In this document: positions 3,389 to 20,144 of the stretch, one piece after another | Numbering within the stretch: the first letter of the stretch is position 1 | Layout of the letters: each line of letters opens with the position of its first letter | UHGV virus genome: UHGV-0262101 | DNA: 23,530 bases | From: a virus | Strand: one strand, 5' to 3' | The notes under the pieces: generated by a model | Seen by the model: only the letters and a program-made list of their open reading frames with translations | What the model was told of the DNA's origin: nothing | Database searches by the model: none | Position numbers and translations under genes: made by a program

Positions 3389-3395
3389 ATTATTT

Positions 3396-4746: not shown

Positions 4747-4761
4747 CTTAATTCTCCAGGC

Positions 4762-4785
4762 AAAAAGAAACCGCCATATAGCGGC
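4762..4785 (-). terminator. Possible intrinsic terminator upstream of the xis-like gene (minus-strand sense)
   Basis: Minus-strand reading gccgctatatggcgg followed by tttcttttt. Short GC stem with one G-U pair. Confidence 0.3.
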
Positions 4786-4846
4786 TCTATCAGATATGTA
4801 CAGGCCTCATCGAGTGTGAGGCGGTGTGATTTCTTTATTTCCACTC

Positions 4847-5062: not shown

Positions 5063-5085
5063 CTACTACCCCCAAAAAACCTCCA

Positions 5086-5253: not shown

Positions 5254-5325
5254 TTATCATCTCCATAAAACAAAACTCGCCGTAGCGAGTTCAGATAAAA
5301 GAAATCCCCGCGAGTGCGAGGATTG

Positions 5326-5610
5326 TTATTCATTGCCGATATTCACCTTTATCGCGTACACCTTTACCGGTTTATCGCCGAAGTGAGGATGTGTGATTGT
5401 CTTGATTTCATATCCGTCATACGGGACGTCAATTCTGCGGCTGGAATCGTCGCGCTTCGGATATCCCTTTGTGATAATCAGGCGGTCATACTCCCGGAAC
5501 ATAATTCGCTTATTCCAGTAGTCATTACACAGGCGATACTCTTCCGTTTTCTCTCCGCGAATCATGGCATCGAAGTATTCACCTTTGACGGCAAGTTGCA
5601 GGTTAGCCAC
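5326..5610 (-). CDS. Hypothetical protein (94 aa)
   Basis: Track ORF. GTG start preceded by AGGAGG at 6-nt spacing. Overlaps the stop of the upstream gene by 8 nt. Confidence 0.6.
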   Translation of the reverse strand: MANLQLAVKGEYFDAMIRGEKTEEYRLCNDYWNKRIMFREYDRLIITKGYPKRDDSSRRIDVPYDGYEIKTITHPHFGDKPVKVYAIKVNIGNE

Positions 5611-6157
5611 GGTTAACCTCCTGAGGCGGTTCTGGTAGATGCATCCAGTGGGTTACTCCGTCAATTGGTTCATCGTCGTCGTACTCCAATGCGGCTATAT
5701 AGAACCCGTCACGACGAGAATAAGAAATCCCGGACATTACAATGCCATCCGAAACAACAATAATGTCACCCGTTTCTTCCGGCATTCGCTCACTACAGCT
5801 TATCCAACCACCCGGAGTTACCGGAGAGTTGCCCGATAGTGCATTCTGCTCCAGTGATGCTTTCACAAACCACGCAGCCTGAACTATTACGCCATGAATC
5901 CAGCGCAAATCGGCATCACGATTTTCTTTTTTCATTTTTTCGCCACTTAAAGCCTTGCTTACGTGACTTTTTACCAGATTTTCGTGTAATTCTTTTGCTT
6001 CTTCAATTGTGAAACCACCAGGCAAATTTGGCGCTTCTGCTTCCAGCGATGCCAGAGCAATTTCATAAGCCCGACGCTCAATATTGTCTCGGACGTCCAG
6101 GCTGCCTATACGCTCTCTGATTTCTTTAATCAGTTCTTTGTCGGTTAAAGTGGTCAT
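5603..6157 (-). CDS. DUF551-type phage protein (Eaa-like)
   Basis: 184 aa. C-terminal WISCSERMPEE...DGVTHWMHLPEPP resembles the DUF551 domain common in lambdoid early-left regions. Confidence 0.65.
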   Translation of the reverse strand: MTTLTDKELIKEIRERIGSLDVRDNIERRAYEIALASLEAEAPNLPGGFTIEEAKELHENLVKSHVSKALSGEKMKKENRDADLRWIHGVIVQAAWFVKASLEQNALSGNSPVTPGGWISCSERMPEETGDIIVVSDGIVMSGISYSRRDGFYIAALEYDDDEPIDGVTHWMHLPEPPQEVNRG

Positions 6158-6167
6158 AAATTATGCC

Positions 6168-6404
6168 TCAGTTGTATCCGATTGGATTAACCGCAACAAT
6201 AACGCCATCCGCGAACAAATCTTTAATGAGGTGTTCGCTCGGCTCGCCTTTTTCGTACTCTTCAATAAGGTAAGTGTCTCCATCCTCATTGATATAAACT
6301 GGAAGAATGGAACCGTTGATGAAGTAGGTTCCGTTGTTATCGAGGATTTTTGCCTCGGCGATTTGTTTTTTGGTAAAACGATCTTCTTTTTTCAAAGTTG
6401 CCAT
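6168..6404 (-). CDS. Hypothetical protein (78 aa)
   Basis: Track ORF 6168..6476 trimmed to the internal ATG at 6402-6404 (MATLKKEDRF...), which has AAGGAGA 5 nt upstream and abuts the stop of the upstream ORF. Confidence 0.55.
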   Translation of the reverse strand: MATLKKEDRFTKKQIAEAKILDNNGTYFINGSILPVYINEDGDTYLIEEYEKGEPSEHLIKDLFADGVIVAVNPIGYN

Positions 6405-6405
6405 A

Positions 6406-6594
6406 TCACTCTCCTTTAGTGCGCAAATGGTTTTTCCAGCGGTTTTGCGCCGCGCTGGGCTTTTTGCAAAAACCACAATCCATCATCCCGTAATATTTCA
6501 TCAACCCCATCCGTCGGTTGCTGAGTCTCACCCACTGCCAGACGCCAGGAGCGTTTCTACGAACTAACAGAATCTTTGCTTTACGGTTTTTCAT
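6406..6594 (-). CDS. Hypothetical small protein (62 aa)
   Basis: Track ORF. ATG overlaps the stop of the 58-aa ORF upstream (ATGA) and its own stop abuts the next ATG. Confidence 0.5.
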   Translation of the reverse strand: MKNRKAKILLVRRNAPGVWQWVRLSNRRMGLMKYYGMMDCGFCKKPSAAQNRWKNHLRTKGE

Positions 6595-6767
6595 CGCTTT
6601 GCTCTCCTGCGTCTCTTTGCTGCTCGTCGTGCCGCTGCAATACCGGTATGGCGGCGCTTTGGTGCCGGGATGATGTTGTCAGCCATCAGGACATGTGGCT
6701 TTGCAATTAGCGCAGAAGCCCAAAAACGAGTCGGGTACGGTAACAAGTCGATACATGCCACACGCAT
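6591..6767 (-). CDS. Hypothetical small basic protein (58 aa), not in the ORF track
   Basis: Manual translation MRVACIDLLPYPTRFWASALIAKPHVLMADNIIPAPKRRHTGIAAARRAAKRRRRAKR. AAAGGAGG upstream, TAATG overlap with the upstream gene and ATGA overlap with the downstream gene. Confidence 0.45.
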   Translation of the reverse strand: MRVACIDLLPYPTRFWASALIAKPHVLMADNIIPAPKRRHTGIAAARRAAKRRRRAKR

Positions 6768-7255
6768 TACTCACCTCCTTTGATGCGAATGCCTGTTGCA
6801 ATGCTGTTTATGATGCTGTCAGTGCATGGGGTAGAAAGCTGGGCATCTCCAGCAATTTTCATGACCTCAACATCTGCATATCGAATACCGAGGTGTATCA
6901 GACCGGCTATGCCTGACTTAAGCCGAGCATTTTCCATAAATAGAACTTTTGCCCGCTGTTTTTCTGCTTCAAGCTCAACACGCAGCTTCCCTACCGTTAG
7001 CGCAATTTCCTCGTTTTCCTGGTCGCGGCGTTTGATGTATTGCTGGTTTCTTTCCCGTTCATCCAGCAGTGCCAGCACGGTTTCTGGTCCGGTCAGAAAT
7101 TTGAAGGCGTTGAGCGCATCAATATCCACACCGTAATCTTTAAGTTCCTGTTCACTTAACAAGTCATCATCAGCTGGCAACATTAACAGGCGTTCCATTG
7201 CTGGAATTGCACGTTCCGCCACCTCACGCAGTGCCTGGTAATTAATTTCGCTCAC
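6767..7255 (-). CDS. Hypothetical protein (162 aa), Ea22/Ead-like coiled-coil-rich
   Basis: Track ORF. GTG start overlapping the upstream stop (GTGA), AAGGAGG 6 nt upstream. Confidence 0.6.
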   Translation of the reverse strand: MSEINYQALREVAERAIPAMERLLMLPADDDLLSEQELKDYGVDIDALNAFKFLTGPETVLALLDERERNQQYIKRRDQENEEIALTVGKLRVELEAEKQRAKVLFMENARLKSGIAGLIHLGIRYADVEVMKIAGDAQLSTPCTDSIINSIATGIRIKGGE

Positions 7256-7683
7256 TGGTTGCCTCCTTTGCGAAGCTGGGCAGCAAAGTCACGGATAGTG
7301 TCATCAAGGTCTGGGCACAACAGATGGTCAGCAAACATCTCTACCACCTGCGCCCGTACTTCAGCCAGGAAAGCATCGGTGGCTGGGGTTTCAGTAACAT
7401 CATCTTCCCATTCGCCAAACTCCTCACGACAAAAGTCATTAAATTCCTTCTCAGATTGCTTAAGCGAGGTATTTTCTGCAGCCATCTTCGCGCATTTAGC
7501 CTCAAGGTTATCAATCGTGATTCCAGCAGAACGACACTCCCGCAACGCCGTTTCCAGTTTTGATTCAAGCTCACCGAACTTACGCACCAGATATTCAGCG
7601 TTTGTTTCGTTAACCTTTAAATCTCGTGGGATGCATTTACCTTTCAGAAATCCATCCATCCCAATTAGTGACATTTGTTTCAT
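7252..7683 (-). CDS. Hypothetical acidic protein (about 143 aa)
   Basis: Track ORF 7252..7701 trimmed to ATG at 7681-7683 (MKQMSLIG...), which overlaps the stop of the 54-aa ORF (ATGA). Confidence 0.6.
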
Positions 7684-7844
7684 TTCTTCCCACTCCGCCA
7701 CATCGCATTCAGATATTTGTTTTGATTCACTGACGGAAAAGAATTTCTCTTAAGTAATTCCTCTCTCGATGGCATTGGCTTTACGCGCTGGCGAATAATC
7801 ATTTCTGCCGGAAGAATGCCGGGATTGTATGCAAGTCCTCTCAT
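7680..7844 (-). CDS. Hypothetical small protein (54 aa), not in the ORF track
   Basis: Manual translation [61 protein letters not shown] 7 nt upstream of the ATG. Confidence 0.45.
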
Positions 7845-7860
7845 GGTAAATTCCTCTTTG

Positions 7861-8175
7861 TTAATTTATTCGTATGCCTGCTCTTTCTTCATCGAGTTTT
7901 TTTAGCTTGTATCGCATAGCTCTTACTGAATAAATTGAGCGGCAGGTTGCAATTGCTATTTCTTCTGCGGAGAACTTACCGAAAAGTGATACTTCGGCTC
8001 TTGTCCATCGTCTTCCACGAAGTCGGCTAACAATGTCAGCTCCAATCCTTGTTGCTTTCGCCATTACTGCTTTTTCAGTCCTTTCCAGTTTTTCAGCGAT
8101 AACTTCAACTGGCATTGTCGCCGCCACTTCGCGCAAGAAATCGACTTCCCATTTCTCCCATGGAGTCTTTTTCAT
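7861..8175 (-). CDS. Hypothetical protein (104 aa)
   Basis: Track ORF, ATG start, same strand and tight spacing with the recombination module. No homology recognised. Confidence 0.55.
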
Positions 8176-8186
8176 AGGCGATACCG

Positions 8187-8669
8187 TTATTTGATAAGAA
8201 GTGAAGGTTTCCCAACCTTGAGTTGAGCGCCTGGGATATTTATTCCTGCTTTTAGTTGGTGCTTGATTGCCAACTTGTCGGCTTTAATTGTCGTTTCAAA
8301 CTCAACGTATTCAGGAGGAAGGGCGCTTGAGTCGATGATTTCTACAGTTTCTGACGGTTTGCGGATTGTTACCTGGTGAATACCTGCTCTAATCTTTTTC
8401 TTGCCAACCATTTCAAGCGATGACGCTATATATGATTTGATGCTGTCAATCTTATTTTGAATTACTGCGGCTCGCTCATTCAGTGACTTTGCCTCTTCCT
8501 TGAGGCGTTCAGCATAACCAGATTCATTTTTAATAATGGAAAGAAGTTGCTCTATTTTATCGATAAATTCTCCTTCCATGCCTTCTATTGTGTCAGCAAT
8601 CATCTCTGGCTCTAAATCTGAATCCATCAATTTTGCGTATTCATTGGCAATTTCATACAGTTTGCTCAC
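8187..8669 (-). CDS. Gp157-family protein (Sipho_Gp157-like, recombination-associated)
   Basis: Track ORF 8187..8675 begins with TTG; an in-frame GTG at 8667-8669 has GGAG 6 nt upstream. The protein (SKLYEIANEYAKLMDSD...coiled-coil...) resembles Gp157 proteins that accompany RecT/Sak4 recombinases. Confidence 0.6.
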   Translation of the reverse strand: MSKLYEIANEYAKLMDSDLEPEMIADTIEGMEGEFIDKIEQLLSIIKNESGYAERLKEEAKSLNERAAVIQNKIDSIKSYIASSLEMVGKKKIRAGIHQVTIRKPSETVEIIDSSALPPEYVEFETTIKADKLAIKHQLKAGINIPGAQLKVGKPSLLIK

Positions 8670-9555
8670 TGGCAACCTCCAGTTTCGCTTTGCATTCTGC
8701 GTAAATGGCTTGTACGTTCTGCTGCAATTTCATTCCAGATGTCAGGCGATATGCTTCTGCAAAATATCGCTTCAAATCATCCATGTTTTCTGCCTGAGCC
8801 ATTTCATCACAAAGAAGTTGTGCTTTTTCCATAATTTCCTGCTGGCGTTTCCGTTCATCTTCGCGGATATCTTCCTCTGATTTGTGCGGCATAACTGGTT
8901 CCTGATGCATACCTTCATCTTCGTTAAGCAGGTGAATGGCATTATCCAGTCGCTGGGCTTTAGGCCAGTATTTGCTGGCGCGTTTAACTATTGTTTTACG
9001 CGCCATCTCTTCCCAGAATGTCTTCCACGGTCCATTCTTTGCCTTGCTCGTTGCTTCCACAGCTTTAATTTCTGCCAGACTCATTTCTTCAGTGAGGTAG
9101 TCACCATCTGCTGTTTTAACCGTACAATAACCACCAACAATAGAGCCTCGCTCACCAAATGCGTTGTATTTGTGGGTTGGTGCTGAATCAAGGCCGTTTG
9201 ATTCATAGGTGTCGTTTGAGTACACCAGTTTGCATTGCCCCCACTTAATTGATCCTGTCGACTGTGCAAGGTGAAGTAATCCCATATAGCTGATATCAAG
9301 GCAAACCATGCCGTCGCGCGGAACTAGATAAGCAAGTTTGCTGGCCGGGTTTAAGGTGATGCCGATCGCCGCAACATTGATGATGGCGTTCTGTGCGCTG
9401 GTTGGATTTGCCAGTGCCGTTTTAGCCAGGTAATCGTTTTTCTGGAAATACTGAATTGCAAACTGGCTTTCCTTAGCCCATGTCACCGTCTGTTCAGTCA
9501 ATGCTCCGCAGAATAACTGCTCCTGCTGTTTAACGAATTCAACGATATTGCTCAT
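8653..9555 (-). CDS. recT: RecT-family single-strand annealing recombinase
   Basis: 300 aa. NGPWKTFWEEMARKTIVKRASKYWP matches the conserved RecT motif (E. coli RecT NNGPWVTHWEEMAKKTAIRRLFKYLP). Confidence 0.85.
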   Translation of the reverse strand: MSNIVEFVKQQEQLFCGALTEQTVTWAKESQFAIQYFQKNDYLAKTALANPTSAQNAIINVAAIGITLNPASKLAYLVPRDGMVCLDISYMGLLHLAQSTGSIKWGQCKLVYSNDTYESNGLDSAPTHKYNAFGERGSIVGGYCTVKTADGDYLTEEMSLAEIKAVEATSKAKNGPWKTFWEEMARKTIVKRASKYWPKAQRLDNAIHLLNEDEGMHQEPVMPHKSEEDIREDERKRQQEIMEKAQLLCDEMAQAENMDDLKRYFAEAYRLTSGMKLQQNVQAIYAECKAKLEVASEQTV

Positions 9556-9860
9556 GCTGCTTCTCCAAAAATGTGTCTGCGCTTGAATATTGCGAAGGCA
9601 TATTCAGCCTTAACTCTTTCGGTTATTGCATCCCAGAACCATTCAGCGGCTTTTTCCTGATAGTTACAGTCATCATCTTCCAGCCAGTCGATAGCGTCCT
9701 TAGTGTGTTCATCTGGTTTATATGAGCGAAGCATTTCGCTTATTGGGTCGCAACGTTTGCAGAGGCGATCAACTTCACTGTTGATTCGTTCGTAATCATC
9801 ATCGGTAAAACTTGCGATGATTTGCGATATTTCACGCTTATCATTCAGAGTCAGAATCAT
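9552..9860 (-). CDS. Hypothetical acidic protein (about 102 aa)
   Basis: Track ORF 9552..9863, with AGGAGA upstream. Stop overlaps the recT ATG (ATGA). No homology recognised. Confidence 0.6.
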   Translation of the reverse strand: MILTLNDKREISQIIASFTDDDYERINSEVDRLCKRCDPISEMLRSYKPDEHTKDAIDWLEDDDCNYQEKAAEWFWDAITERVKAEYAFAIFKRRHIFGEAA

Positions 9861-9948
9861 CATCTTTCTCCTGTTCTTTGTGCTGATTGAGCATTTTGTT
9901 CATCTGACGAATGAATTCTTCGTCTGACCAGTTATCTGTAAAACTCAT
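9841..9948 (-). CDS. Possible very small acidic protein (35 aa)
   Basis: Manual translation MSFTDNWSDEEFIRQMNKMLNQHKEQEKDDDSDSE. ATG overlaps the stop of the cIII-like ORF (ATGA). Too short to judge. Confidence 0.3.
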   Translation of the reverse strand: MSFTDNWSDEEFIRQMNKMLNQHKEQEKDDDSDSE

Positions 9949-10115
9949 GGACGGACTTGTTGTTTCAAAATATCCCAAAGCTTTTCGAGCAAACTTTTCA
10001 TTCTTGGTTGTTTAAAGTCTGCTCCGGTTAAAATATTTTTTCGTGAATGCTGTACCGATAAAATCGGGTTGAAAGGGCGAACCGATGCCGCCCCTGCAAT
10101 AGCGAACTGTTGCAT
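9945..10115 (-). CDS. Possible CIII-like small regulator (56 aa)
   Basis: Internal ATG of track ORF 9945..10220 with AAGGAG 6 nt upstream. MQQFAIAG... and the KSLLEKLWDILKQ helix loosely resemble lambda CIII (MQYAIAG...RLIDILNQ). Position between N and the recombination genes matches cIII. Confidence 0.4.
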   Translation of the reverse strand: MQQFAIAGAASVRPFNPILSVQHSRKNILTGADFKQPRMKSLLEKLWDILKQQVRP

Positions 10116-10309
10116 AGGATGCTCCTTCTGTTTGATTGCATAACGAAAACGCCTCGAGTGAAGCGTTATTGGTATGCATATAAAAAGGCCCTCACACTGG
10201 AGGGCAAAGAAGATTTCCAATAATCAGAACAAGTCGGCTCCTGTTTAGTTACGAGCGACATTGCTCCGTGTATTCACTCGTTGGAATGAATACACAGTGC
10301 TTACTCGTA

Positions 10310-10780
10310 CTAATAAAATACCCAATTTTCTGTTTCTTGGTTGTGCCCAAAGTTATATTCAATATCTGGTGTTGATGTATCAATATTCTTCATCCCATCA
10401 ACAAGAGTTGATACAACAGCCAAATCTTGTTTGATTCTCATTAAATGGTATTTCTTCCGGCGCAATAAACTCTCAATGGCAAGTTTCTTCGTTGGGAATG
10501 CAAAAGATCTTTCTGCATTTTTTGCTACTTTCTTAATTGCATATCTATTTCTCCTTTGTTTCCATTCCTGTAACCACTGATTTGGTGCTGGTTTAAAATT
10601 AACAATCCAATGCGCAGGAACCAACCATGCATAATGCTCTGTCTGATGAAAAGCTATATATTGAAGTGCGAATATTTTTATCCCATCTTCTTCAACTGTC
10701 GCTTGGAATCTCCAGAAAACAGGCATTCCATCATGTTCAGTTTCTGATTCAGGAAAAGGTACGCTCCATGATTTTGTCAT
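10310..10780 (-). CDS. Hypothetical protein (156 aa), second gene of the N-proximal moron
   Basis: Track ORF, ATG with GAGGTGA 4 nt upstream. AT-rich, no recognisable domain, no TM segment. Confidence 0.7.
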   Translation of the reverse strand: MTKSWSVPFPESETEHDGMPVFWRFQATVEEDGIKIFALQYIAFHQTEHYAWLVPAHWIVNFKPAPNQWLQEWKQRRNRYAIKKVAKNAERSFAFPTKKLAIESLLRRKKYHLMRIKQDLAVVSTLVDGMKNIDTSTPDIEYNFGHNQETENWVFY

Positions 10781-10828
10781 ATCTCACCTCAAATAATTCA
10801 GTGCAGTGTTTATTCTGTTGTTAGTGCC

Positions 10829-10853
10829 AAAAATAAAGGCCGACTATGCGGCC
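10829..10853 (-). terminator. Intrinsic terminator between the two moron genes (minus-strand sense)
   Basis: Minus-strand ggccgcatagtcggcc (5-bp GC stem) followed by tttattttt. The hairpin overlaps the stop codon of the 207-aa gene. Confidence 0.5.
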
Positions 10854-11467
10854 TCGGAAGGAAGTCCAATCATCTTATTCAAATCTTCTACCCGTAAAGC
10901 AGGAAGTGCTGTACTTGCTTTATCTGCTTCTTTTGGTAGCAATTCTTTGCTTTCAGGCCAAACTTCAATAAGTCGCTTAACTGTTGTGACTGAGTTCAAA
11001 GCACCCCATACATTTGATTCGATATCCTTTTTCAAGGCTTCAAGGTTTTGTTGCAATGCGCAGATTTCATCAAACCTTTTTGTTATTTCGTGTTCTGCGT
11101 CAAACATGCACTTATCTTTGGTTGGAGTAGGGAGAAATATATCTTCGCCATTGCCGTCTTTCCCATATGAATGCCATCCAACCCTTCTGCCAGATACAGT
11201 CAGATAAATTGAAGTAGAACGAAAATCGTATGAGTAAAATGAACATCCCATCTTTTCAAGTTCTTCACTTATAGCTACCAACTTGGATGATAACTGATCC
11301 ACTTCCTCAGTTTTCTTTTTACCGCCAAACGCAATAACTCTGGCGTCAAGTGCAAGCTGGTTCTTTAACTTTGTTACTTCTTCAAGTTCAGTGAAAACCC
11401 CAGACTTAATTAAAGCGTTACGAGCGATTTCCTCTTTCATTCTCGTAGTTAAGCGGATTGATGACAT
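10844..11467 (-). CDS. Hypothetical protein (207 aa), first gene of the N-proximal moron, translationally coupled to N
   Basis: Track ORF 10844..11527 trimmed to ATG 11465-11467 (MSSIRLTTRMKEE...). Its RBS GAGAGGA overlaps the N stop codon. AT-rich, no recognisable domain. Confidence 0.7.
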   Translation of the reverse strand: MSSIRLTTRMKEEIARNALIKSGVFTELEEVTKLKNQLALDARVIAFGGKKKTEEVDQLSSKLVAISEELEKMGCSFYSYDFRSTSIYLTVSGRRVGWHSYGKDGNGEDIFLPTPTKDKCMFDAEHEITKRFDEICALQQNLEALKKDIESNVWGALNSVTTVKRLIEVWPESKELLPKEADKASTALPALRVEDLNKMIGLPSEAA

Positions 11468-11478
11468 ATTAATTCCTC

Positions 11479-11805
11479 TCAAATAAGTGGTTTGCTGCCT
11501 AATTTCATTTTCTGGCGACCAACACAAGTCACACCCATTTCACTGCGTGGCTTGCTGTACCATGTGCGCTGATTCTTGCGCTCAATACGTTGCAGGTTGC
11601 TTTCAATCTGTTCGTGGTATTCAGCCAGCACCGTAAGGTCTATCGGATTCAGTGCGCTTTCTACTCGTGATTTCGGTTTGCGATTCAGCGAGAGAATAGG
11701 GCGGTTAACTGGTTTTGCGCTTACCCCAACCAACAGGGGATTTGCTGCTTTCCATTGAGCCTGTTTCTCTGCGCGACGTTCGCGGCGGCGTGTTTGTGCA
11801 TCCAT
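11479..11805 (-). CDS. N: Antitermination protein N (lambda type)
   Basis: Internal ATG of track ORF (AGGAGA upstream). MDAQTRRRERRAEKQAQWKAANPLLVGVSAKPVNRPILSLNRKPKSRVESALNPIDLTVLAEYH... is near-identical to lambda N as recalled, including the arginine-rich boxB-binding motif. Confidence 0.9.
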   Translation of the reverse strand: MDAQTRRRERRAEKQAQWKAANPLLVGVSAKPVNRPILSLNRKPKSRVESALNPIDLTVLAEYHEQIESNLQRIERKNQRTWYSKPRSEMGVTCVGRQKMKLGSKPLI

Positions 11806-11977
11806 CTGGATTCTCCTGTCAGTTAGCTTTGGTGGTGTGGTAGGTGGGAGACCCATTTCGACCTGCTTCGGCCGACTTCAATTCGGCAATAGTTCCGCAG
11901 GCCTCGCCGCTTTACGTGCGACATATTCCCATCCATGAACCCTTCACCACACCCCAAAGCCTTCTGCTTTGAATGCT

Positions 11978-12008
11978 GCCCTTCTTCAGGGCTTAATTTT
12001 TAAGAGCG
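11978..12008 (-). promoter_or_regulatory. nutL (boxA CGCTCTTA plus boxB hairpin GCCCTGAAGAAGGGC)
   Basis: Reverse complement of 11978-12008 reads cgctcttaaaaattaagccctgaagaagggc, matching lambda nutL as recalled. Confidence 0.85.
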
Positions 12009-12052
12009 TCACCTTCATGGTGGTCAGTGCGTCCTGCTGATGGCTTAAAATA

Positions 12053-12132
12053 TACCTACAGGTAAAACCCATGTCTATACCTGTAGGTAAATAAAATTGA
12101 TGTGAGAGTTTACCTGCTTGAATTTTCAGGTA
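12053..12132. promoter_or_regulatory. oL operator cluster with the pL promoter region
   Basis: Palindromic 12-mers tacctacaggta (12053-12064) and tacctgtaggta (12078-12089), plus split half-sites tacct (12111-12115) and aggta (12128-12132). Same motif as at oR. Confidence 0.6.
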
Positions 12133-12150
12133 ATTAATTTTTTGGATTGA

Positions 12151-12174
12151 TATAAAAAAGCCCGCTTTGCGGGC
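12151..12174 (-). terminator. Intrinsic terminator ending the cI-distal transcript
   Basis: Perfect hairpin gcccgc-ttt-gcgggc (12160-12174). The minus-strand reading is followed by ttttttata. Confidence 0.65.
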
Positions 12175-12186
12175 TGAAAGGAGATG

Positions 12187-12483
12187 TCAGAAGCTATTTG
12201 GATTGCTTGGCCATTGCGGCAATTTTGATTCTACTGGGGTGTGTTTGGGTTTGAGTCCGTTTAAGTAGTCAAGGCGCTCAATGGCGCATTTATACATAGC
12301 AATCTGCTCTGATGACATGTCGTCGTATGACATGCCTTTGAACTTTTTAATTATCGATTCTGCCTCATGTATAAGATTCTTCTTCCTCATGAGTTCAGCT
12401 GTATGCTTAGAGCTTACAGGAGATAACTTTGCCCATATGAAGCAGATGATTACAACAGCGACTACTATGCCGGGTATAAACAT
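12187..12483 (-). CDS. Small single-pass membrane protein co-transcribed with cI (rexAB position)
   Basis: Track ORF 12187..12501 starts with TTG overlapping the cI stop (TTGA); the first ATG is at 12481-12483. MFIPGIVVAVVIICFIWAKL is a predicted TM helix followed by a charged soluble tail. No homology recognised. Confidence 0.6.
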   Translation of the reverse strand: MFIPGIVVAVVIICFIWAKLSPVSSKHTAELMRKKNLIHEAESIIKKFKGMSYDDMSSEQIAMYKCAIERLDYLNGLKPKHTPVESKLPQWPSNPNSF

Positions 12484-12497
12484 TTGCTGCTTTATCC

Positions 12498-13184
12498 TCA
12501 AACTTTTGGCAGATCGTCCTGGTCTACGTACCTGGTGTGTTTCACAATAGCTGAAACAAAATGCATTTTATCAACTTCTTCAACAGGAAGAGTGATTGGG
12601 CGGTGATCACTGTTTATGCTACTAAACTGATAATCACCGTCTCTTGTTTTGTTCATGATCTTTATCATGTTGTGACCGTCTTTGGTCCTTACAAAGACTT
12701 CATCACCTGGATGTACTGGCGTATTTGGTTCAATAACAACATATTCTCCTGACTGAATCCTTGGCCACATGCTGTCACCCTTAACCTTCAGACCGTAAGC
12801 ATCTTTATCGCCGCTGTAGATGCTTAACCAACCGGATCTGAATTCAATCATATCCACTGAGCCATCAACTCCCAAAACGGCTTCACCAATTACCGGAACA
12901 AAACCCGCACGAACGTTACCCGCAAACTCAAGATGGTCCGTAGCTCCAGCTTTACCATCTGCAAGCATGTCCATCCATCCGCGTGGGAGATTAAAAGATT
13001 TTTCAATTAGTTCCATCATATCGTCAGCAATGCGTTTTTTTCCGCTTTTTCCTTCCGGATACAGCATTCTGGAAACGTATGATGGTTCCCTTTCTATTCG
13101 ACGAGCCAACTCTGAGGCCTTTCCATTACAGAATCGGTCTCTTATCTCTATCAGCCTTAGTCGTCTTTGTTCGTATTTATCCAT
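12498..13184 (-). CDS. cI: CI-type prophage repressor (HTH N-domain plus LexA-like S24 autopeptidase C-domain)
   Basis: 228 aa. C-terminal GDSMWPRIQSGEYVVIE...MIKIMNK carries the Ser/Lys autocleavage motifs. Divergent from cro across the operator region. Not lambda cI. Confidence 0.85.
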   Translation of the reverse strand: MDKYEQRRLRLIEIRDRFCNGKASELARRIEREPSYVSRMLYPEGKSGKKRIADDMMELIEKSFNLPRGWMDMLADGKAGATDHLEFAGNVRAGFVPVIGEAVLGVDGSVDMIEFRSGWLSIYSGDKDAYGLKVKGDSMWPRIQSGEYVVIEPNTPVHPGDEVFVRTKDGHNMIKIMNKTRDGDYQFSSINSDHRPITLPVEEVDKMHFVSAIVKHTRYVDQDDLPKV

Positions 13185-13204
13185 GATTTAATTCTATCTT
13201 TGAT

Positions 13205-13260
13205 TACCTGCCGGTAAATAACCTATGGGTATTGATTTGCTTTTTACCTACAGGTAAACT
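13205..13260. promoter_or_regulatory. oR operator cluster with pR/pRM region
   Basis: tacctgccggta (13205-13216), degenerate aacctatgggta (13221-13232) and tacctacaggta (13245-13256). Candidate pR is -35 TTGATT (13232-13237), 17-nt spacer, -10 TAAACT (13255-13260), overlapped by the third site. Confidence 0.6.
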
Positions 13261-13292
13261 CATCTTATTCAACAACGGGAAGGAGATAGCAA

Positions 13293-13523
13293 ATGGAAGA
13301 ACTCCGCTTGTATCTGAACTCCCTTTCACTGGAAGAGCAGAGAGAATTTGCCACCAAGTGCGGAACTTCTATCGGCTATTTGAGGAAAGCACTTAGCCGT
13401 AATCATGAATTGGGCGCAGCACTTTGTGTTCTGATTGAGAAGTTCAGCAATGGTGAAGTGACTCGCAAAGACCTTCATCCGGTTGATTGGGAAAGCATCT
13501 GGCCTGAATTAATGGCCGCTTAA
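13293..13523 (+). CDS. cro: Cro-like HTH regulator
   Basis: 76 aa, first gene rightward of oR, GGGAAGGAG RBS. Assigned by position and size. Not lambda Cro. Confidence 0.65.
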   Translation: MEELRLYLNSLSLEEQREFATKCGTSIGYLRKALSRNHELGAALCVLIEKFSNGEVTRKDLHPVDWESIWPELMAA

Positions 13524-13531
13524 GTTATTAA

Positions 13532-13563
13532 CGCTCTTACACATCCCCGCCCTGAAAAAGGGC
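13532..13563 (+). promoter_or_regulatory. nutR (boxA CGCTCTTA plus boxB GCCCTGAAAAAGGGC)
   Basis: cgctctta at 13532-13539 and gccctgaaaaagggc at 13549-13563, matching lambda nutR as recalled. Confidence 0.85.
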
Positions 13564-13639
13564 ATTACCAGAAACAAATCTCTATGGTTTTGCGTTTCTT
13601 TGCGAAGCCAACTCTATCTAATCATTAAGGAAATTATCT

Positions 13640-13921
13640 ATGGGTACTATTGCAACTAAAAGCAAGAAAGCGGCTCGCATCGAGTCAGCCTTGCTGAACA
13701 AACTGGCACTGATGGGGCAGAAGACATTCGCTCGAGCAATGGGGGTTCCTGAATATCAGGTAAGCCGATGGAAGAATGGTTTCTTCTCGCAGGTAAGCAT
13801 GATGCTGGCTGTTCTGGAATACGGAATCGAAGACGATGAAATGGCTGAGCTGACTAAGCGGCTTGCCAATTACCTGACAAAAGAAAAAGCCCCGAAGAAC
13901 GGCGAATTCTTCGAGGCCTGA
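13640..13921 (+). CDS. cII: CII-like transcriptional activator
   Basis: 93 aa. ARIESALLNKLALMGQKTFARAMGV...SRWKNG...SMMLAVLEYGIEDDEMAEL aligns by eye with lambda CII (LRIESALLNKIAMLGTEKTAEAVGVDKSQISRWK...). Confidence 0.75.
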   Translation: MGTIATKSKKAARIESALLNKLALMGQKTFARAMGVPEYQVSRWKNGFFSQVSMMLAVLEYGIEDDEMAELTKRLANYLTKEKAPKNGEFFEA

Positions 13922-13955
13922 TGTAGAAAGACTGGATCAATCCACAGGAGTAATT

Positions 13956-14117
13956 ATGACAAAACGTCGTAAGAAATACCAGGAAAAAGAAGAGATTCGA
14001 CACCCTGATTCACCTGAGGGATTAGTGGTAGCCGCAGCAAATAACAGGGCGTTCGCAGAGCGCCTTGTTGGTGTTTACAGACTAGCCAAAGCAGGAGTGA
14101 AACATGGGCGTCGTTAA
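13956..14117 (+). CDS. Possible small basic protein (53 aa), not in the ORF track
   Basis: Manual translation [60 protein letters not shown] 5 nt upstream. Overlaps the O start by 14 nt. Confidence 0.35.
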   Translation: MTKRRKKYQEKEEIRHPDSPEGLVVAAANNRAFAERLVGVYRLAKAGVKHGRR

Positions 14118-14925
14118 GTTAGCTGATTACAGGCCTCAACTGGAGGTCGTGGAGCATCGCGTGGCAGATACCGAAGATGGTTTCATGCGCGTTGCTAACG
14201 AGATTACTGACAGTCTGCTGATGGCTGATTTAACCGTCCGGCAGTTGAAGGTGATGCTCGCTATCATGCGCAAGACATACGGATTCAATAAGCCGATGGA
14301 TCGACTCACAAACACGCAGATAGCAGCCATGACAGGTATTCATCACACTCATGTTTGCGCTGCCAAGCGCCAGCTTATCGAGCGTAAATTCCTCATTGCT
14401 GATGGCGTGAAAATCGGAGTGAACAAGGTGGTTTCTCAGTGGATTAGCCAGGACAGCTTAACATTAGCTAAAACAGCTAATAAAACATTAGCCAAGTCGG
14501 CTAATGGGTATAAGCCAAGTCAGCTAAACACAAAAGACAATATACAAAAGACAATAAATACAAATACCCCCTTACCCCCTAACGGGGGTGGCGATGGGCA
14601 GGTTAAACCTGAACGTCGCAAGGCAGAACGAATCGACTACGAATCCTTCCTGAACGCCTACAACACCGAAGTCGGTGACAGACTGCCACACGCTGTTGCG
14701 GTCAACGAGAAACGCAAACGCCGCCTGAAGAAAATCATCCCGCAACTGAAAACGCCAAACGTGGACGGTTTCAGAGCGTATGTCAGGGCGTTTGTGCATC
14801 AGGCCAAGCCGTTTTACTTCGGAGACAACGACACGGGCTGGACAGCTGATTTTGATTACCTGCTGAGGGAAGATTCGTTAACGGGAGTACGGGAAGGGAA
14901 GTTTGCAGACAGGGGGATTGCATGA
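14104..14925 (+). CDS. O: Replication initiator, lambda-O-like
   Basis: 273 aa. N-terminal [22 protein letters not shown] matches the replication protein O N-terminal domain. The iteron origin lies inside the gene. Stop overlaps the helicase ATG (ATGA). Confidence 0.8.
14444..14570. repeat. Replication origin: four iterons TTAGC-N7-GCTAA followed by an AT-rich tract, inside the O-like gene
   Basis: Iterons at 14444-14461 (ttagccaggacagcttaa), 14464-14480, 14488-14504 and 14511-14527, spaced 20-24 bp. The tract 14528-14570 is AT-rich. Confidence 0.7.
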
Positions 14926-16298
14926 AACAGGATATCGAAGCGAGCGTTATCGGTGGCCTGCTGATTGGTGGATTAACACCAACTGCCAGTGACGTTCTGG
15001 CAACGCTTGAGCCGGAAGCGTTTTCAATTCCGCTCTACCGGAAAGCCTTCGAGGTTATCCGCAAGCAGGCGCGAAACAGAAATTTAATCGACGCGCTGAT
15101 GGTTGCCGAGGCGTGCGGAGAGGAGCATTTCACGTCAATCCTGATGACCAGCAAAAACTGCCCGAGTTCCGCAAACCTGAAGGGATATGCCGGAATGGTC
15201 GCGGATAACTATCACCGCCGTCTGGTGCTGGAAATCATGGATGAAATGCGTGAACCAATTCAGAGCGGAACCATCGACGCATCGAGTCAGGCGATGGATG
15301 AACTTGTAAAGCGTCTTTCAGCCATCAGAAAGCCCCGTGACGAGGTTAAACCTGTACGGTTAGGGGAAATCATAACTGACTACACTGACATGCTTGACAG
15401 GCGTCTGAGGAACGGAGAAGAGTCAGATACCCTGAAGACCGGAATCGAAGAACTTGATGCTATCACCGGAGGGATGAACGCGGAAGACCTGGTGATAATA
15501 GCTGCTCGTCCTGGTATGGGGAAAACCGAACTGGCGCTGAAGATTGCCGAAGGCGTTGCAAGCCGTGTTATTCCTGGTTCTGACGTCCGGCGCGGAGTGT
15601 TGATTTTCTCGATGGAAATGAGCGCATTGCAGATTGCAGAGCGAAGCATTGCCAACGCCGGGAGGATGTCGGTTAGCGTGCTACGAAATCCTGCATCGAT
15701 GGATGACGAAGGCTGGGCGCGCGTTGCTAACGGCATGAATCAGCTTGCGGATTTGGATGTATGGGTAGTCGATGCATCGCGGTTATCGGTCGAAGAAATA
15801 CGCTCAATCGCAGAACGGCACAAACAGGAAAATCCAAACCTGTCACTCATCATGGCGGATTATCTTGGCCTGATTGAGAAGCCGAAAGCAGACCGCAACG
15901 ACCTCGCAATTGCTCACATCTCAGGAAGCCTTAAGGCGATGGCGAAAGACCTGAAAACGCCTGTTATCTCCCTAAGTCAGCTTTCGCGCGATGTTGAGAA
16001 GCGACCAAACAAACGCCCGACAAACGCAGATTTGCGTGATTCAGGAAGCATTGAACAGGACGCAGACTCAATCATCATGCTCTATAGGGAAGCGGTATAT
16101 GACGAGAACAGTAGCGCCGCGCCATTTGCTGAAATCATCGTGACGAAAAACCGTTTTGGCTCGCTTGGTACGGTTTACCAGCGGTTCTGCAACGGACACT
16201 TTGTTGCATGTGACCAGGATGAAGCCAGACAGATTTGCACAGCATCAAATGCACCCGCTGCACGTGGCAGGCGATATGCACAAGGGGCTGACGTATGA
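14922..16298 (+). CDS. Replicative DNA helicase, DnaB family (P22 gp12-like)
   Basis: 458 aa with Walker [10 protein letters not shown] and other DnaB C-domain motifs. The stop codon TGA is supplied by the first 3 nt of the IS600-like element. Confidence 0.9.
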
Positions 16299-16359
16299 GG
16301 TAGCCTGAGTTTAACGGACACTCCTTCCTGAAATAGAATGGCATCAGAAGGAGCTAATA

Positions 16360-16728
16360 ATGAGCAGAAAAACCCAACGTTACTCTAAAGAGTTCAAAGC
16401 CGAAGCTGTCAGAACGGTTCTTGAAAATCAACTTTCGATCAGTGAAGGCGCTTCCCGATTATCTCTTCCTGAAGGCACTTTAGGACAATGGGTTACCGCC
16501 GCCAGAAAAGGGCTCGGTACTCCTGGTTCCCGCACGGTGGCTGAACTGGAATCTGAAATTCTGCAACTGCGTAAGGCGTTAAATGAAGCTCGCCTTGAGC
16601 GAGATATATTAAAAAAAGCAACTGTAGATTCAATTGGTCAACGCAACAGTTATGTGAAAACATGGGGTTGCGGAGGTTTTTTGAATGAGACGAACATTTA
16701 CAGCAGAGGAAAAAGCCTCTGTTTTTGA
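16360..16728 (+). pseudogene. IS600-like OrfA with C-terminus replaced by read-through into IS30
   Basis: The OrfA frame is native up to about codon 87 (...RDILKKAT) and the A7G frameshift motif is at 16611-16618. After the IS30 junction at 16623 the ORF reads IS30 end sequence. Confidence 0.7.
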
Positions 16729-17843
16729 ACTATGGAAGAACGGAACAGGCTTCAGTGAAATAGCGAATATCCTGGGTTCAAAACCCGGAACGATCTTCAC
16801 TATGTTAAGGGATACTGGCGGCATAAAACCCCATGAGCGTAAGCGGGCTGTAGCTCACCTGACACTGTCTGAGCGCGAGGAGATACGAGCTGGTTTGTCA
16901 GCCAAAATGAGCATTCGTGCGATAGCTACTGCGCTGAATCGCAGTCCTTCGACGATCTCACGTGAAGTTCAGCGTAATCGGGGCAGACGCTATTACAAAG
17001 CTGTTGATGCTAATAACCGAGCCAACAGAATGGCGAAAAGGCCAAAACCGTGCTTACTGGATCAAAATTTGCCATTGCGAAAGCTTGTTCTGGAAAAGCT
17101 GGAGATGAAATGGTCTCCAGAGCAAATATCAGGATGGTTAAGGCGAACAAAACCACGTCAAAAAACGCTGCGAATATCACCTGAGACAATTTATAAAACG
17201 CTGTACTTTCGTAGCCGTGAAGCGCTACACCACCTGAATATACAGCATCTGCGACGGTCGCATAGCCTTCGCCATGGCAGGCGTCATACCCGCAAAGGCG
17301 AAAGAGGTACGATTAACATAGTGAACGGAACACCAATTCACGAACGTTCCCGAAATATCGATAACAGACGCTCTCTGGGGCATTGGGAGGGCGATTTAGT
17401 CTCAGGTACAAAAAACTCTCATATAGCCACACTTGTAGACCGAAAATCACGTTATACGATCATCCTTAGACTCAGGGGCAAAGATTCTGTCTCAGTAAAT
17501 CAGGCTCTTACCGACAAATTCCTGAGTTTACCGTCAGAACTCAGAAAATCACTGACATGGGACAGAGGAATGGAACTGGCCAGACATCTAGAATTTACTG
17601 TCAGCACCGGCGTTAAAGTTTACTTCTGCGATCCTCAGAGTCCTTGGCAGCGGGGAACAAATGAGAACACAAATGGGCTAATTCGGCAGTACTTTCCTAA
17701 AAAGACATGTCTTGCCCAATATACTCAACATGAACTAGATCTGGTTGCTGCTCAGCTAAACAACAGACCGAGAAAGACACTGAAGTTCAAAACACCGAAA
17801 GAGATAATTGAAAGGGGTGTTGCATTGACAGATTGAATCTACA
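16623..17843 (+). mobile_element. IS30, complete
   Basis: 1221 bp from tgtagattcaattggtcaacgcaac to gttgcattgacagattgaatctaca (26-bp imperfect IRs), flanked by 2-bp direct repeat AC (16621-16622 and 17844-17845). Confidence 0.9.
16685..17836 (+). CDS. insI: IS30 transposase
   Basis: 383-aa ORF with N-terminal HTH and DDE-type catalytic region; size and sequence match IS30 transposase as recalled. Confidence 0.9.
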   Translation: MRRTFTAEEKASVFELWKNGTGFSEIANILGSKPGTIFTMLRDTGGIKPHERKRAVAHLTLSEREEIRAGLSAKMSIRAIATALNRSPSTISREVQRNRGRRYYKAVDANNRANRMAKRPKPCLLDQNLPLRKLVLEKLEMKWSPEQISGWLRRTKPRQKTLRISPETIYKTLYFRSREALHHLNIQHLRRSHSLRHGRRHTRKGERGTINIVNGTPIHERSRNIDNRRSLGHWEGDLVSGTKNSHIATLVDRKSRYTIILRLRGKDSVSVNQALTDKFLSLPSELRKSLTWDRGMELARHLEFTVSTGVKVYFCDPQSPWQRGTNENTNGLIRQYFPKKTCLAQYTQHELDLVAAQLNNRPRKTLKFKTPKEIIERGVALTD

Positions 17844-17920
17844 ACAGCGTATTTTGCACAGGAGTCGCTGAAAAATACGCGTTAATCGAACAATGGCGAC
17901 AACAATTTCCCATTGAAGCG

Positions 17921-18739
17921 ATGTGTCAGGTATTTGGTGTATCCAGGAGCGGTTATTACAACTGGGTACAGCATGAACCCTCAGACAGAAAACAAAGTGA
18001 TGAGCGGCTAAAACTGGAGATTAAGGTGGCACATATCCGCACTCGCGAAACATATGGAACCCGGCGGCTCCAGACGGAGCTGGCAGAGAATGGCATCATC
18101 GTTGGTCGTGACCGACTGGCACGTCTTCGTAAGGAGCTAAGGCTACGCTGTAAGCAGAAACGCAAGTTCAGAGCGACTACGAACTCGAACCACAATCTGC
18201 CAGTTGCGCCAAATCTGCTGAACCAGACGTTCGCTCCTACAGCACCAAATCAGGTCTGGGTGGCGGACCTGACGTATGTTGCCACACAGGAGGGATGGTT
18301 GTACCTCGCTGGCATCAAAGATGTTTATACGTGCGAAATTGTCGGCTACGCCATGGGAGAGCGCATGACAAAAGAGCTGACAGGTAAAGCCCTGTTTATG
18401 GCGCTCAGGAGCCAGCGCCCACCTGCCGGGCTAATCCACCACTCTGATCGAGGTTCACAGTACTGCGCATACGATTACCGGGTCATACAGGAGCAGTTTG
18501 GTCTGAAAACATCAATGTCGCGTAAAGGTAACTGTTACGACAACGCTCCGATGGAAAGCTTCTGGGGAACGCTGAAAAATGAGAGCCTGAGCCACTATCG
18601 TTTTAATAACCGGGATGAAGCCATCTCAGTAATACGGGAATACATTGAGATTTTCTACAATCGTCAGCGTCGTCACTCTCGTCTGGGGAATATCTCCCCG
18701 GCAGCCTTCAGGGAAAAATATCATCAGATGGCTGCTTAA
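17921..18739 (+). CDS. IS600-like OrfB (IS3-family integrase-core domain), uncoupled from OrfA
   Basis: 272-aa ORF with rve-type DDE core (WVADLTYV...HSDRGSQY...NAPMESFWGTLK). It is separated from the frameshift site by the 1.2-kb IS30, so the OrfAB fusion cannot be made. Confidence 0.8.
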   Translation: MCQVFGVSRSGYYNWVQHEPSDRKQSDERLKLEIKVAHIRTRETYGTRRLQTELAENGIIVGRDRLARLRKELRLRCKQKRKFRATTNSNHNLPVAPNLLNQTFAPTAPNQVWVADLTYVATQEGWLYLAGIKDVYTCEIVGYAMGERMTKELTGKALFMALRSQRPPAGLIHHSDRGSQYCAYDYRVIQEQFGLKTSMSRKGNCYDNAPMESFWGTLKNESLSHYRFNNRDEAISVIREYIEIFYNRQRRHSRLGNISPAAFREKYHQMAA

Positions 18740-18814
18740 AAAAAGAACAAATGGTAGTGTCCGCTATTGCCAGTACACCTCAGTATGACCATCTACATCA
18801 CTGAGCTAATAACT

Positions 18815-18845
18815 GGCCTGCTGGTAATCGCAGGCCTTTTTATTT
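18815..18845 (+). terminator. Intrinsic terminator upstream of ninB
   Basis: ggcctgc-N8-gcaggcc hairpin (18815-18836) followed by ttttattt. Confidence 0.6.
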
Positions 18846-18861
18846 GGGGGAGAGGGAAGTC

Positions 18862-19302
18862 ATGAAAAAACTAACCTTTGAAATTCGATCTCCATCACAT
18901 CAGCAAAACGCTATTCACGCAGTACAGCAAATCCTTCCAGACCCAACCAAACCAATCGTAGTAATCATTCAGGAGCGCAACCGCAGCTTAGACCAGAATC
19001 GAAAGCTTTGGGCTTGCCTTGGTGACGTCTCGCGTCAGGTTGAATGGCATGGTCGCTGGCTGGATGCAGAAAGCTGGAAGTGTGTGTTTACCGCAGCATT
19101 AAAGCAGCAGGATGTTGTTCCTAACCTTGCCGGGAATGGCTTTGTGGTAATAGGCCAGTCAACCAGCAGGATGCGTGTAAGCGAATTTGCGGAGCTATTA
19201 GAGCTTATACAGGCATTCGGTACAGAGCGTGGCGTTAAGTGGTCGGACGAAGCGCGACTGGCTCTCGAATGGAAAGCGCGATGGGGAGACAGGGCTGCAT
19301 GA
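18862..19302 (+). CDS. ninB: NinB (Orf) recombination protein
   Basis: 146 aa from ATG 18862 (MKKLTFEIRSP...); essentially matches lambda NinB as recalled. The track ORF starts 6 codons earlier. Confidence 0.85.
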   Translation: MKKLTFEIRSPSHQQNAIHAVQQILPDPTKPIVVIIQERNRSLDQNRKLWACLGDVSRQVEWHGRWLDAESWKCVFTAALKQQDVVPNLAGNGFVVIGQSTSRMRVSEFAELLELIQAFGTERGVKWSDEARLALEWKARWGDRAA

Positions 19303-20144
19303 TAAATGTCGTTAGTTTCTCCGGTGGCAGGACGTCAGCATATTTGCTCTGGCTAATGGAGCAAAAGCGACAGGCAGGTGAAGACGTGCATTACGTTTTC
19401 ATGGATACAGGGGCAGAGCACCCTAAAACATATGAGTTCATCCGAAATATCGTCAGTAACTGGAAAATAGACTTACATTGCCTTCGTGTAATACCTAATC
19501 AAGAAATGGGGAAGGCCAGTAGTTATGAAGAGATAGGTGTCAATGATATTGGTCCAGATCTTATACCGTGGAAAAGGATGTTGAATAAATACGGACATCC
19601 ATATATCGGCGGTGCGTTCTGTACCGACAGAATGAAGTCTGTTCCATTCACCAAATATTGTCAGGAAAAGTTTGGGAAAGGAAATTACATCACATGGCTT
19701 GGCATTCGCACAGATGAACCAAACAGGCTTAAAAGGGCTAATGGTTTTCGGTACCTGGCTGATATAAGCGATTTTGAAAAACAGGATGTGCTTGATTGGT
19801 GGAGTGGGCAGAAGTTTGATCTTGGCATACAGGAGCATCTTGGTAATTGTGTTTTCTGCATAAAAAAAAGTATGCAAAAGGTGGCGCTGGCAGCCATGGA
19901 TGAGCCAGAACTTGCAGATGCATTTATCAACATCCTTGATACAGAAATAAAAACAGGAAAGGAACCGGTTATGTATCGAGGGAATAATACACTTAAATCA
20001 CTGATTGCCTTGTTTAGTGATATATCAAGAGATGAGTTAGCCTCAAGAATGACATCAATGCGACAGTATGATTCAGGTTCGTGTTCTGAATCATGTGAAG
20101 CATTTTCATGTCAGCTTGGATTTAATTTTGAGGATGCGGCATGA
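19269..20144 (+). CDS. ninC: NinC-like protein (PAPS-reductase fold)
   Basis: [16 protein letters not shown] is a PP-loop-like motif; size matches lambda NinC. The start could be ATG 19269 or ATG 19299, the latter overlapping the ninB stop as ATGA. Confidence 0.7.

Follow-up and report, generated by a model that had tools for sequence, protein, structure and literature searches.

The genome of a temperate phage (UHGV virus genome UHGV-0262101; the whole stretch analysed, 23,530 nucleotides, is referred to as the window) carries two nested insertion sequences (ISs): an IS600 that separates the last sense codon of a DnaB-type helicase gene from its stop codon, and a complete IS30 inside that IS600, just past its frameshift motif. 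We are confident that the two-level transposon insertion is genuine, that it lies in the rightward early operon of a temperate phage of P22-like/lambdoid type, and that the position of the IS30 was set by target preference. The arrangement is ordinary biology, two known insertion sequences, one nested in the other.

The outer element spans positions 16296-18782 (2487 bp including the nested IS30) and has the ends TGAGGT...ACCTCA, with boundaries checked by script; it starts with TGAGGTAGCC at 16296 and finishes with CAGTACACCTCA at 18782, and is bracketed by 3-bp GTA direct repeats (16293-95 and 18783-85). Deletion of the IS30 together with one AC dinucleotide restored an element of exactly 1264 bp, matching the length of IS600, and inverted-repeat alignment displayed 5'-TG...CA-3' termini with imperfect terminal inverted repeats. 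By frame analysis the restored element has an orfA of 100 aa and an A7G motif, with orfB lying in the -1 frame and a modelled OrfAB of 385 aa, and the Pfam domains HTH_Tnp_1 and rve were detected on proteins identical to its OrfA and OrfB. Identical DNA in complete Escherichia coli genomes is labelled by NCBI as 'IS3-like element IS600 family transposase'. Compared to an uninterrupted IS600 in the Stx2a phage PV12-16, the restored copy differs at 2 of 1264 nt, with OrfA and OrfB identical at the protein level; the PV12-16 copy (locus L002, 5361-6624) lies in another nin-region gene with an ATC duplication. Duplications of 3 bp are borne by other IS600 copies as well (GTC, AAC, TAT, TCC, ATC). 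The features of the outer element are as follows.

16293-16295: left copy of the GTA target duplication, which is also the last sense codon of the helicase gene
16296-16622, plus strand: left segment of IS600 (nt 1-327), including the 5' portion of orfA, 100% identical to nt 1-327 of an uninterrupted IS600
about 16296-16322: left inverted repeat of IS600, imperfect, from the inverted-repeat alignment
16311-16339: promoter-like site in the left segment of IS600
16611-16618, plus strand: -1 frameshift motif A7G of IS600, with the in-frame heptamer A AAA AAA at 16611-16617
17846-18782, plus strand: right segment of IS600 (nt 328-1264), holding the displaced 3' end of orfA, orfB and the right inverted repeat
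17847-17880, plus strand: putative frameshift-stimulating hairpin of IS600, GCGTATTTT ... AAAATACGC
17883-17885, plus strand: displaced orfA stop codon TAA
17921 (first ATG) to a stop at 18739, plus strand: orfB
about 18756-18782: right inverted repeat of IS600
18783-18785: right copy of the GTA target duplication

The inner element spans 16623-17843 (1221 bp) with the ends TGTAGATTCAAT...ATTGAATCTACA, starting with TGTAGATTCAATTGG at 16623 and finishing with GATTGAATCTACA at 17843. It is flanked by 2-bp AC repeats (16621-22 and 17844-45), and when one AC copy was removed along with it the uninterrupted IS600 sequence GCAACAGCG was regained. Its transposase is a single intact protein of 383 aa, identical to WP_001254932.1, and the same protein carries the Pfam domains HTH_38 and rve elsewhere; identical DNA in complete E. 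coli genomes bears the NCBI label 'IS30-like element IS30 family transposase'. The identities and lengths of the two elements, both target duplications and the completeness of the IS30 had been described in a first-pass annotation of this DNA, and they stood when all boundaries were re-read, the direct repeats again being present. Judged by the near-identity of the restored IS600 to an uninterrupted copy and by the transposase identical to WP_001254932.1, both copies are young and undecayed. The features belonging to the inner element and to its junction are as follows.

16360-16728, plus strand: chimeric open reading frame (ORF) of 122 aa, formed by OrfA residues 1-88 followed by 34 codons from the left end of IS30
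16621-16622: left copy of the AC target duplication
16623-17843, plus strand: IS30, complete, 1221 bp, co-oriented with IS600 and with the phage rightward operon
about 16623-16648 and 17818-17843: terminal inverted repeats of IS30, about 26 bp, imperfect
16685-17836, plus strand: transposase gene of IS30, 383 aa, intact
17844-17845: right copy of the AC target duplication

At window position 17071 (IS30 nt 449; composite position 776) the IS30 has a G compared to an A in every other sampled IS30 copy. This synonymous difference is a possible lineage marker of the phage's IS30.

The helicase ORF terminates GAC GTA TGA, with its stop TGA (16296-16298) formed by the first 3 nt of IS600, and a second GTA TGA follows directly past the outer element (18783-88). 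The protein is left unchanged, as IS600 itself opens with TGA; in IS-free relatives the helicase is likewise 458 aa long with the same C-terminus ...GADV*. In-silico excision of both elements gave GGGGCTGACGTATGACCATCTACATC, which is present verbatim in a prophage of E. coli SCU-124, the excised junction reading ...GGGGCTGACGTA TGA CCATCTACATCACTGAGC..., and the gene layout of that prophage from cII to ninB is the same as in the window. A 631-bp query made from the excised junction was covered to at least 80% in 233 complete E. coli genomes and aligned as a single co-linear piece among the matches listed and in phage JEP4, and two further contigs with an identical NinB were IS-free. The first-pass annotation had proposed that removal of the IS and one GTA restores GTA TGA and leaves the helicase unaltered, and had suggested comparing the restored junction with related phages; the SCU-124 prophage and, co-linearly, JEP4 supply that empty site. 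Given the exact empty site and the same helicase length and end in relatives, this is a simple insertion, in which the helicase is unaltered and no phage ORF is interrupted. The gene and its displaced stop are located as follows.

14922-16298, plus strand: P22-gp12-type replicative DnaB helicase gene, 458 aa, with the Pfam domains DnaB and DnaB_C
18786-18788, plus strand: original helicase stop TGA, displaced, which aligns with the lambda ren stop codon

It could be argued that the restored junction is not ancestral and that the IS insertion removed phage DNA, namely a ren-like or ninA-like gene between the helicase and the spacer that follows it. In the Stx2a phage PV12-16 a 90-codon ORF does separate the helicase TGA from a second TGA, after which comes CCATCTAC, and Salmonella P22-like phages have an ORF30/NinA-type gene at the same place. 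A deletion made by the IS next to itself would, however, lose one copy of the target duplication, and the GTA duplication here is perfect; the exact gene-less junction is moreover found in many IS-free prophages, in phage JEP4 and in the two contigs with an identical NinB. The empty-site matches and the intact duplication effectively refute such a deletion, which we consider very improbable. Even less credence is due to the view that repeats misled the assembly and produced the nested arrangement artificially. It is true that the IS boundaries are where short-read assemblies of this phage break, but neither pair of duplications is damaged, the two outer and two inner junctions all recur independently in other assemblies, and the identical 2487-bp structure occurs in many complete genomes; with intact duplications and independently recovered junctions the artefact was rejected. 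Nor is chance a plausible source of the structure observed, since the 3-bp (1/64) and 2-bp (1/16) repeats coincide with the canonical lengths, with near-100% identity and with a verified empty site.

The insertion of IS30 separates the slippery A7 run of IS600 from the putative hairpin downstream of it. IS30 had been placed 3 bp downstream of A7G in the first-pass annotation, which was right as to the motif and needs adjusting as to the distance: the duplicated AC occupies the third and fourth bases after the G, and the body of IS30 begins at the fifth. Since orfA now terminates within IS30 and 1223 bp separate orfA from orfB, no OrfAB is expected in cis, and on this reading of the frames the copy should be incapable of it, with orfB out of frameshifting reach. 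The earlier claim that IS600 cannot make its OrfAB transposase therefore holds in cis; it does not make the element dead in trans, as the ends are intact, and this predicted non-autonomous IS600 could still be moved by OrfAB from another copy. The 122-aa chimera that results is widespread, its exact protein occurring in 14,496 blocks of a public gene-position index.

The site used by IS30 recurs in other elements. In E. coli K-12, IS30A lies inside IS911 at ATATTAAAAAAGGCT[AC]CGCG, the equivalent position with the same AC duplication; IS30 is found in IS911 at that site also in Kluyvera, E. albertii and a viral contig have it there the other way round, and a truncated IS30 in K-12 adjoins the same motif of a third IS3-type element. 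An unbiased scan of IS30 left ends across species-representative genomes and IMG/VR yielded 54 copies with a readable flank, and 41-42 of these (about 78%) lay within frameshift windows of the IS3 family. Both orientations of IS30 were seen in each of three windows (those of IS600, of IS911 and of the third IS3-type element), and several further variant flanks were present among the frameshift-window copies, two of them known from one side only. An IS30 half-site derived empirically from 8 distinct sites reads, towards the centre, T-N-AAAAA-(G/C)-G-(C/T)-N-[2 bp], with an A at position -11 in 16/16 half-sites and a G at position -5 in 15/16. IS600 matches this half-site on both sides, as TTAAAAAAAGCA before AC and, on the other strand, as GCAAAATACGCT before GT, and the second of these half-sites is the 5' arm of the GCGTATTTT...AAAATACGC hairpin. 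Combined with the 5' arm of the hairpin, the A-run and GC at the frameshift site would make up a near-palindromic match to the IS30 half-site.

In published descriptions the 'natural hot spots' of IS30 come close to palindromes, their symmetric consensus being 24 bp long and the stagger 2 bp (PMC9333248, PMC12445084), and the interruption of IS911 by IS30 in K-12 has been reported (PMC9333248, PMC5379014). Both the half-site pattern and the IS911::IS30 structures found here agree with these descriptions. From the census we infer that the position of IS30 in IS600 was dictated by its own target preference and not by chance. A broader proposal is that IS30 may systematically home to the programmed-frameshift window of IS3-family ISs, where the A6-7G run and the 5' arm of the hairpin form a palindromic hot spot; most IS30 copies of the Enterobacteriaceae would then sit inside IS600, IS911 and their relatives and uncouple orfA from orfB, and the dead composites, having good IS3-type ends, would persist and might spread in trans or by recombination. 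We put this general rule forward tentatively, as rather less probable than an even chance; no statement of it was found in the literature surveyed, in which the K-12 IS911::IS30 cases alone are mentioned. Several points weigh against the account by target preference. The consensus used is an empirical one from 8 distinct sites. Many of the IS30 copies counted are inherited or duplicated, with approximately 8-9 clearly independent hits in IS3-type windows compared to approximately 7 elsewhere. The putative hairpin, which in the restored sequence folds with a 9-bp stem at -13.2 kcal/mol, is statistically not distinctive (z = -1.24).

A related arrangement was noted in a K-12 derivative at the KpLE2 element after fecE (L005, 3734-5281 plus the right flank). 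There the fragment to the left of IS30D, for which IS911 is the usual label, is IS600 nt 1-327 with one mismatch, and to the right IS30D is bordered by the end of an IS911-like orfA in inverted orientation (GTAGCCTTTTTAATATT). It seems as if two IS30 copies, each residing in a different IS3-family element, had undergone an inversion between them.

IS30 in IS600 is a very common pre-existing structure and no local accident. A 120-bp probe over the left IS600-IS30 junction matched in full in 1284 of 5426 complete E. coli genomes. The full 2487-bp composite, with IS30 at the same dinucleotide and 3-4 single-nucleotide polymorphisms (SNPs), was found in E. coli chromosomes beside wzzB (duplication GTC) and beside sat (AAC). 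A partial composite is present in K-12 KpLE2. Nested composites occupy at least 10 distinct loci, and IMG/VR contributed 15 more nested copies, up to six per genome and at further sites, some with duplications of their own (GTA, TAT, TCC). The left part of IS600 was joined to the opposite end of IS30 in 850 of the 5426 genomes, and one locus (L158) displayed a true reverse insertion of IS30 with both IS600 arms present. This commonness is attributed to the target preference of IS30. In the composite at the sat locus (L006) the base after the right AC (composite position 1551) is changed from A to C, giving ACCGCG as in IS911 compared to ACAGCG; repair or conversion where IS30 joins IS600 could have left this change.

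The insertion at the phage site is real and circulating. The helicase-IS600 junction was not found in the 5426 complete E. coli genomes, the IMG/VR contigs or the JGI metagenome contigs; an exact-protein look-up of the helicase returned 22 contigs, and at least 7 public samples, assembled independently, carry GACGTA joined to TGAGGTAGCC, at 100% identity to the window (one at 99.96%) over up to 7.7 kb. Carriers of the phage include GCA_040021835.1 and the read sets ERR11484157, SRR29256248, SRR4305269, SRR8090649 and ERZ21883168. Most contigs bearing the junction stop within 25-30 nt of the IS600 end, which is what short-read assembly would give at a repeat, and from the other side contigs 100% identical to the window have their first base either where IS30 meets IS600 or within the final 28 nt of IS600.

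Some break points fall at the inner junctions. Two contigs (L205, L206) begin at window position 17842, 2 nt inside the IS30 end, and a third (L190) ends at 16622, the IS600/IS30 junction, all three at 100% identity to the window. Multi-copy IS30 alone would leave an overlap of approximately k-1 nt, and these breaks lie where IS30-occupied and uninterrupted IS600 diverge, which hints at mixed occupied and uninterrupted alleles in those samples. One further contig (L184; ENA ERZ21883168 NODE_1064) is 99.96% identical to window 8922-16634 and has the same helicase-IS600 junction. From the position equivalent to window 16623 onward (7702-7754 of the contig), after ...AAAAAAAGCAAC, it enters the opposite end of IS30, as the reverse complement of window 17791-17843. 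This implies an inverted IS30 in the same phage-borne IS600, or a mis-join.

As to the order of events, the structure described in the first-pass annotation is upheld, and the history it implied, in which IS600 landed and IS30 then hit it by chance, is one of three scenarios. We lean towards a later acquisition of the IS30, or of an IS30-bearing allele, by a phage that already carried IS600. Nested copies have polyphyletic IS600 parts, which fall into several haplotypes that are common to uninterrupted copies (SNP haplotypes of 78 uninterrupted and 10 nested copies), and one genome has an IS30-free IS600 at the sat-locus site. The sat allele, the L184 contig and the shared haplotypes suggest that IS30 occupancy changes in place, and together with independent IS30 hits at the site in both orientations they favour IS600 first and IS30 later.

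Alternatively, a ready-made 2487-bp IS600::IS30 unit may have entered the phage in one step, through OrfAB provided in trans by an uninterrupted IS600 in the same cell. Full-length 2487-bp composites, 3-11 SNPs apart, lie at 10 or more unrelated sites, and six composite sites have perfect 3-bp duplications of their own (GTA, GTC, AAC, GTA, TAT, TCC). Several observations that fit unit arrival also weigh against a later gain of IS30: there are several copies per genome in uniform orientation (six nested copies in one genome and four in another, all in one orientation and with no uninterrupted IS600 in the sampled loci), the allele 217A is confined to four nested copies at four sites, and no IS30-free IS600 was found at the wzzB site in the 5426 complete E. 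coli genomes. A further point against a later gain is that L184, which is part of the case for it, is a short-read metagenome contig whose last 53 nt could be a mis-join. Every pattern that supports unit arrival is, however, also expected if IS30 hits a pre-existing IS600 at a strong hot spot, and the arrival of a finished unit is not what the polyphyletic IS600 parts, with haplotypes common to uninterrupted copies, the IS30-free sat allele or the other IS30 orientation suggested by L184 at this phage site would lead one to expect. IS3-family transposases are preferentially cis-acting, as known from work on IS911, which also counts against it. We regard unit arrival as unlikely, though with an appreciable share of the probability.

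The remaining scenario is that an uninterrupted IS600 inserted first and then gained its IS30, with no IS30 transposition, by homologous recombination or gene conversion with a chromosomal IS600::IS30 through the 327-bp and 937-bp arms. Hybrid structures attest recombination between IS30 and IS600 copies (IS600-left, IS30 and inverted IS911-left in K-12 KpLE2; IS911-left, IS30 and IS600-right; IS600-left, IS30 and inverted IS600-left), approximately a quarter of E. coli genomes hold nested copies so that a lysogen often has a donor, and an orientation swap as in L184 would be explained. The private synonymous SNP (G at composite position 776), however, occurs in no other sampled IS30, leaving no donor that can be named; we consider this route improbable. 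IS600 first with IS30 later, whether by transposition or by recombination, is favoured over unit arrival and stands, in our judgement, at slightly better than even. Four tests bear on the question (haplotypes, orientation counts, searches for IS30-free alleles at wzzB and sat, and SNPs in the IS30 part); they point different ways and none is decisive.

The insertion lies at the boundary of two phage modules. Homology to lambda begins at the ren stop codon and spans the 73-bp ren-ninB spacer into ninB (alignment to lambda 40539-40700), and because the displaced helicase stop at 18786-18788 aligns with the ren stop, the mosaic joint between a P22-type replication module and lambda-like sequence can be placed, by alignment, at the helicase/ren stop codon. 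The upstream replication genes are P22-type, with a Phage_rep_O-type initiator and a DnaB helicase in place of lambda O/P (Pfam), and the module is co-linear with that of Lederbergvirus JEP4 and of Salmonella P22-like phages. The lambda ren position and the non-lambda replication module proposed in the first-pass annotation are thereby borne out. The rest of the window contains a P22-type tailspike N-terminus, an integrase, RecT, an S24 repressor, NinG, a phosphatase and Q (Pfam), and tRNA and Rfam scans of the window found nothing. Two features follow the insertion directly.

18815-18846, plus strand: intrinsic terminator-like hairpin with a T run in the lambda-homologous spacer, before ninB
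18862-19302, plus strand: ninB, which opens the lambda-like nin block after the insertion

Several further observations concern this neighbourhood. Window position 18814 is a T compared to an A in lambda and in the SCU-124 prophage (AACTGGCC versus AACAGGCC), so that the terminator-like hairpin close behind the insertion loses its outermost base pair. A 26-codon ORF (MTIYITELITGLLVIAGLFIWGRGKS; window 18785-18865) crosses the lambda-homologous spacer and the terminator hairpin; its ATG borrows the last A of the right GTA duplication, it ends in an ATGA overlapping the ninB start, and it is kept in lambda and in the empty-site prophage. After ninB there is a gene with a PAPS-reductase domain (19299-20144), in an arrangement identical in the IS-free relatives L203 and L204. 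At the other end of the window, a tailspike gene with a P22 head-binding domain (115-2586) lies approximately 0.8 kb from the integrase gene (3396-4574) on the same strand, with no ORF of at least 90 aa in the interval. Of window 1-13000 at most 52% is covered by any one complete E. coli genome, which marks the phage as a mosaic that this genome set does not represent.

The composite adds 2.49 kb to the distance between the early promoter and the nin genes and Q (ninB to Q), which follow the two co-oriented elements. A terminator scan found no intrinsic terminator on the plus strand within the composite, Rho-dependent polarity being outside the reach of the scan, and expression of the nin genes and Q would presumably rely on N-antiterminated read-through of both elements, in the manner of classical IS insertions in lambda. 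The insertion is a clean example of nested known ISs in a temperate phage that spares all phage genes. For annotation, the helicase should be read as intact and the 122-aa 'transposase' ORF as a chimera. The helicase-IS600 junction, which several public read sets contain but none of the 5426 complete E. coli genomes does, provides a strain or phage lineage marker, and caution is required as such phages break short-read assemblies at the IS insertion. The only part likely to interest specialists is the proposal that in nature IS30 lands predominantly in the frameshift windows of IS3-family elements. If this preference is true, it would give a sequence-level reason for the nesting seen in approximately a quarter of E. 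coli genomes, and one mobile element family would be routinely disabling another in cis.

IS600 is a member of the IS3 family that was described in Shigella sonnei and is common in Shigella and enterohaemorrhagic E. coli. The window copy resembles it in its restored length of 1264 bp, TG...CA ends, 3-bp duplication, 0/-1 frames, A-run slippery site and 99.8% identity to uninterrupted copies, and differs in being split by IS30, with the 122-aa OrfA-derived chimera in place of the 100-aa OrfA. IS30, of the IS30 family, is known from E. coli K-12 and phage P1, and the inner element agrees with it in length (1221 bp), 26-bp imperfect inverted repeats, 2-bp duplication and single 383-aa transposase, and its target, an A-rich ...GC site that looks near-palindromic, would be in keeping with the published 'natural hot spots'; structurally nothing sets it apart, the one private synonymous SNP being the only difference. 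The closest parallels are the IS911::IS30 structures of K-12 (CP4-6, KpLE2), in which the AC duplication likewise lies a few bases 3' of an A-run frameshift motif and orfA is split from orfB, whereas the host element there is IS911 with the slippery motif A6G and the K-12 copies have undergone additional truncation or rearrangement. Polar IS insertions in the early rightward operon of lambda are classical, for example IS2 in the cII-O region. The insertion described here is similar to these in that an IS lies inside the N-antiterminated pR unit, upstream of the genes for late development; unlike them, it is a 2.5-kb double element seated between genes, with no phage ORF broken.

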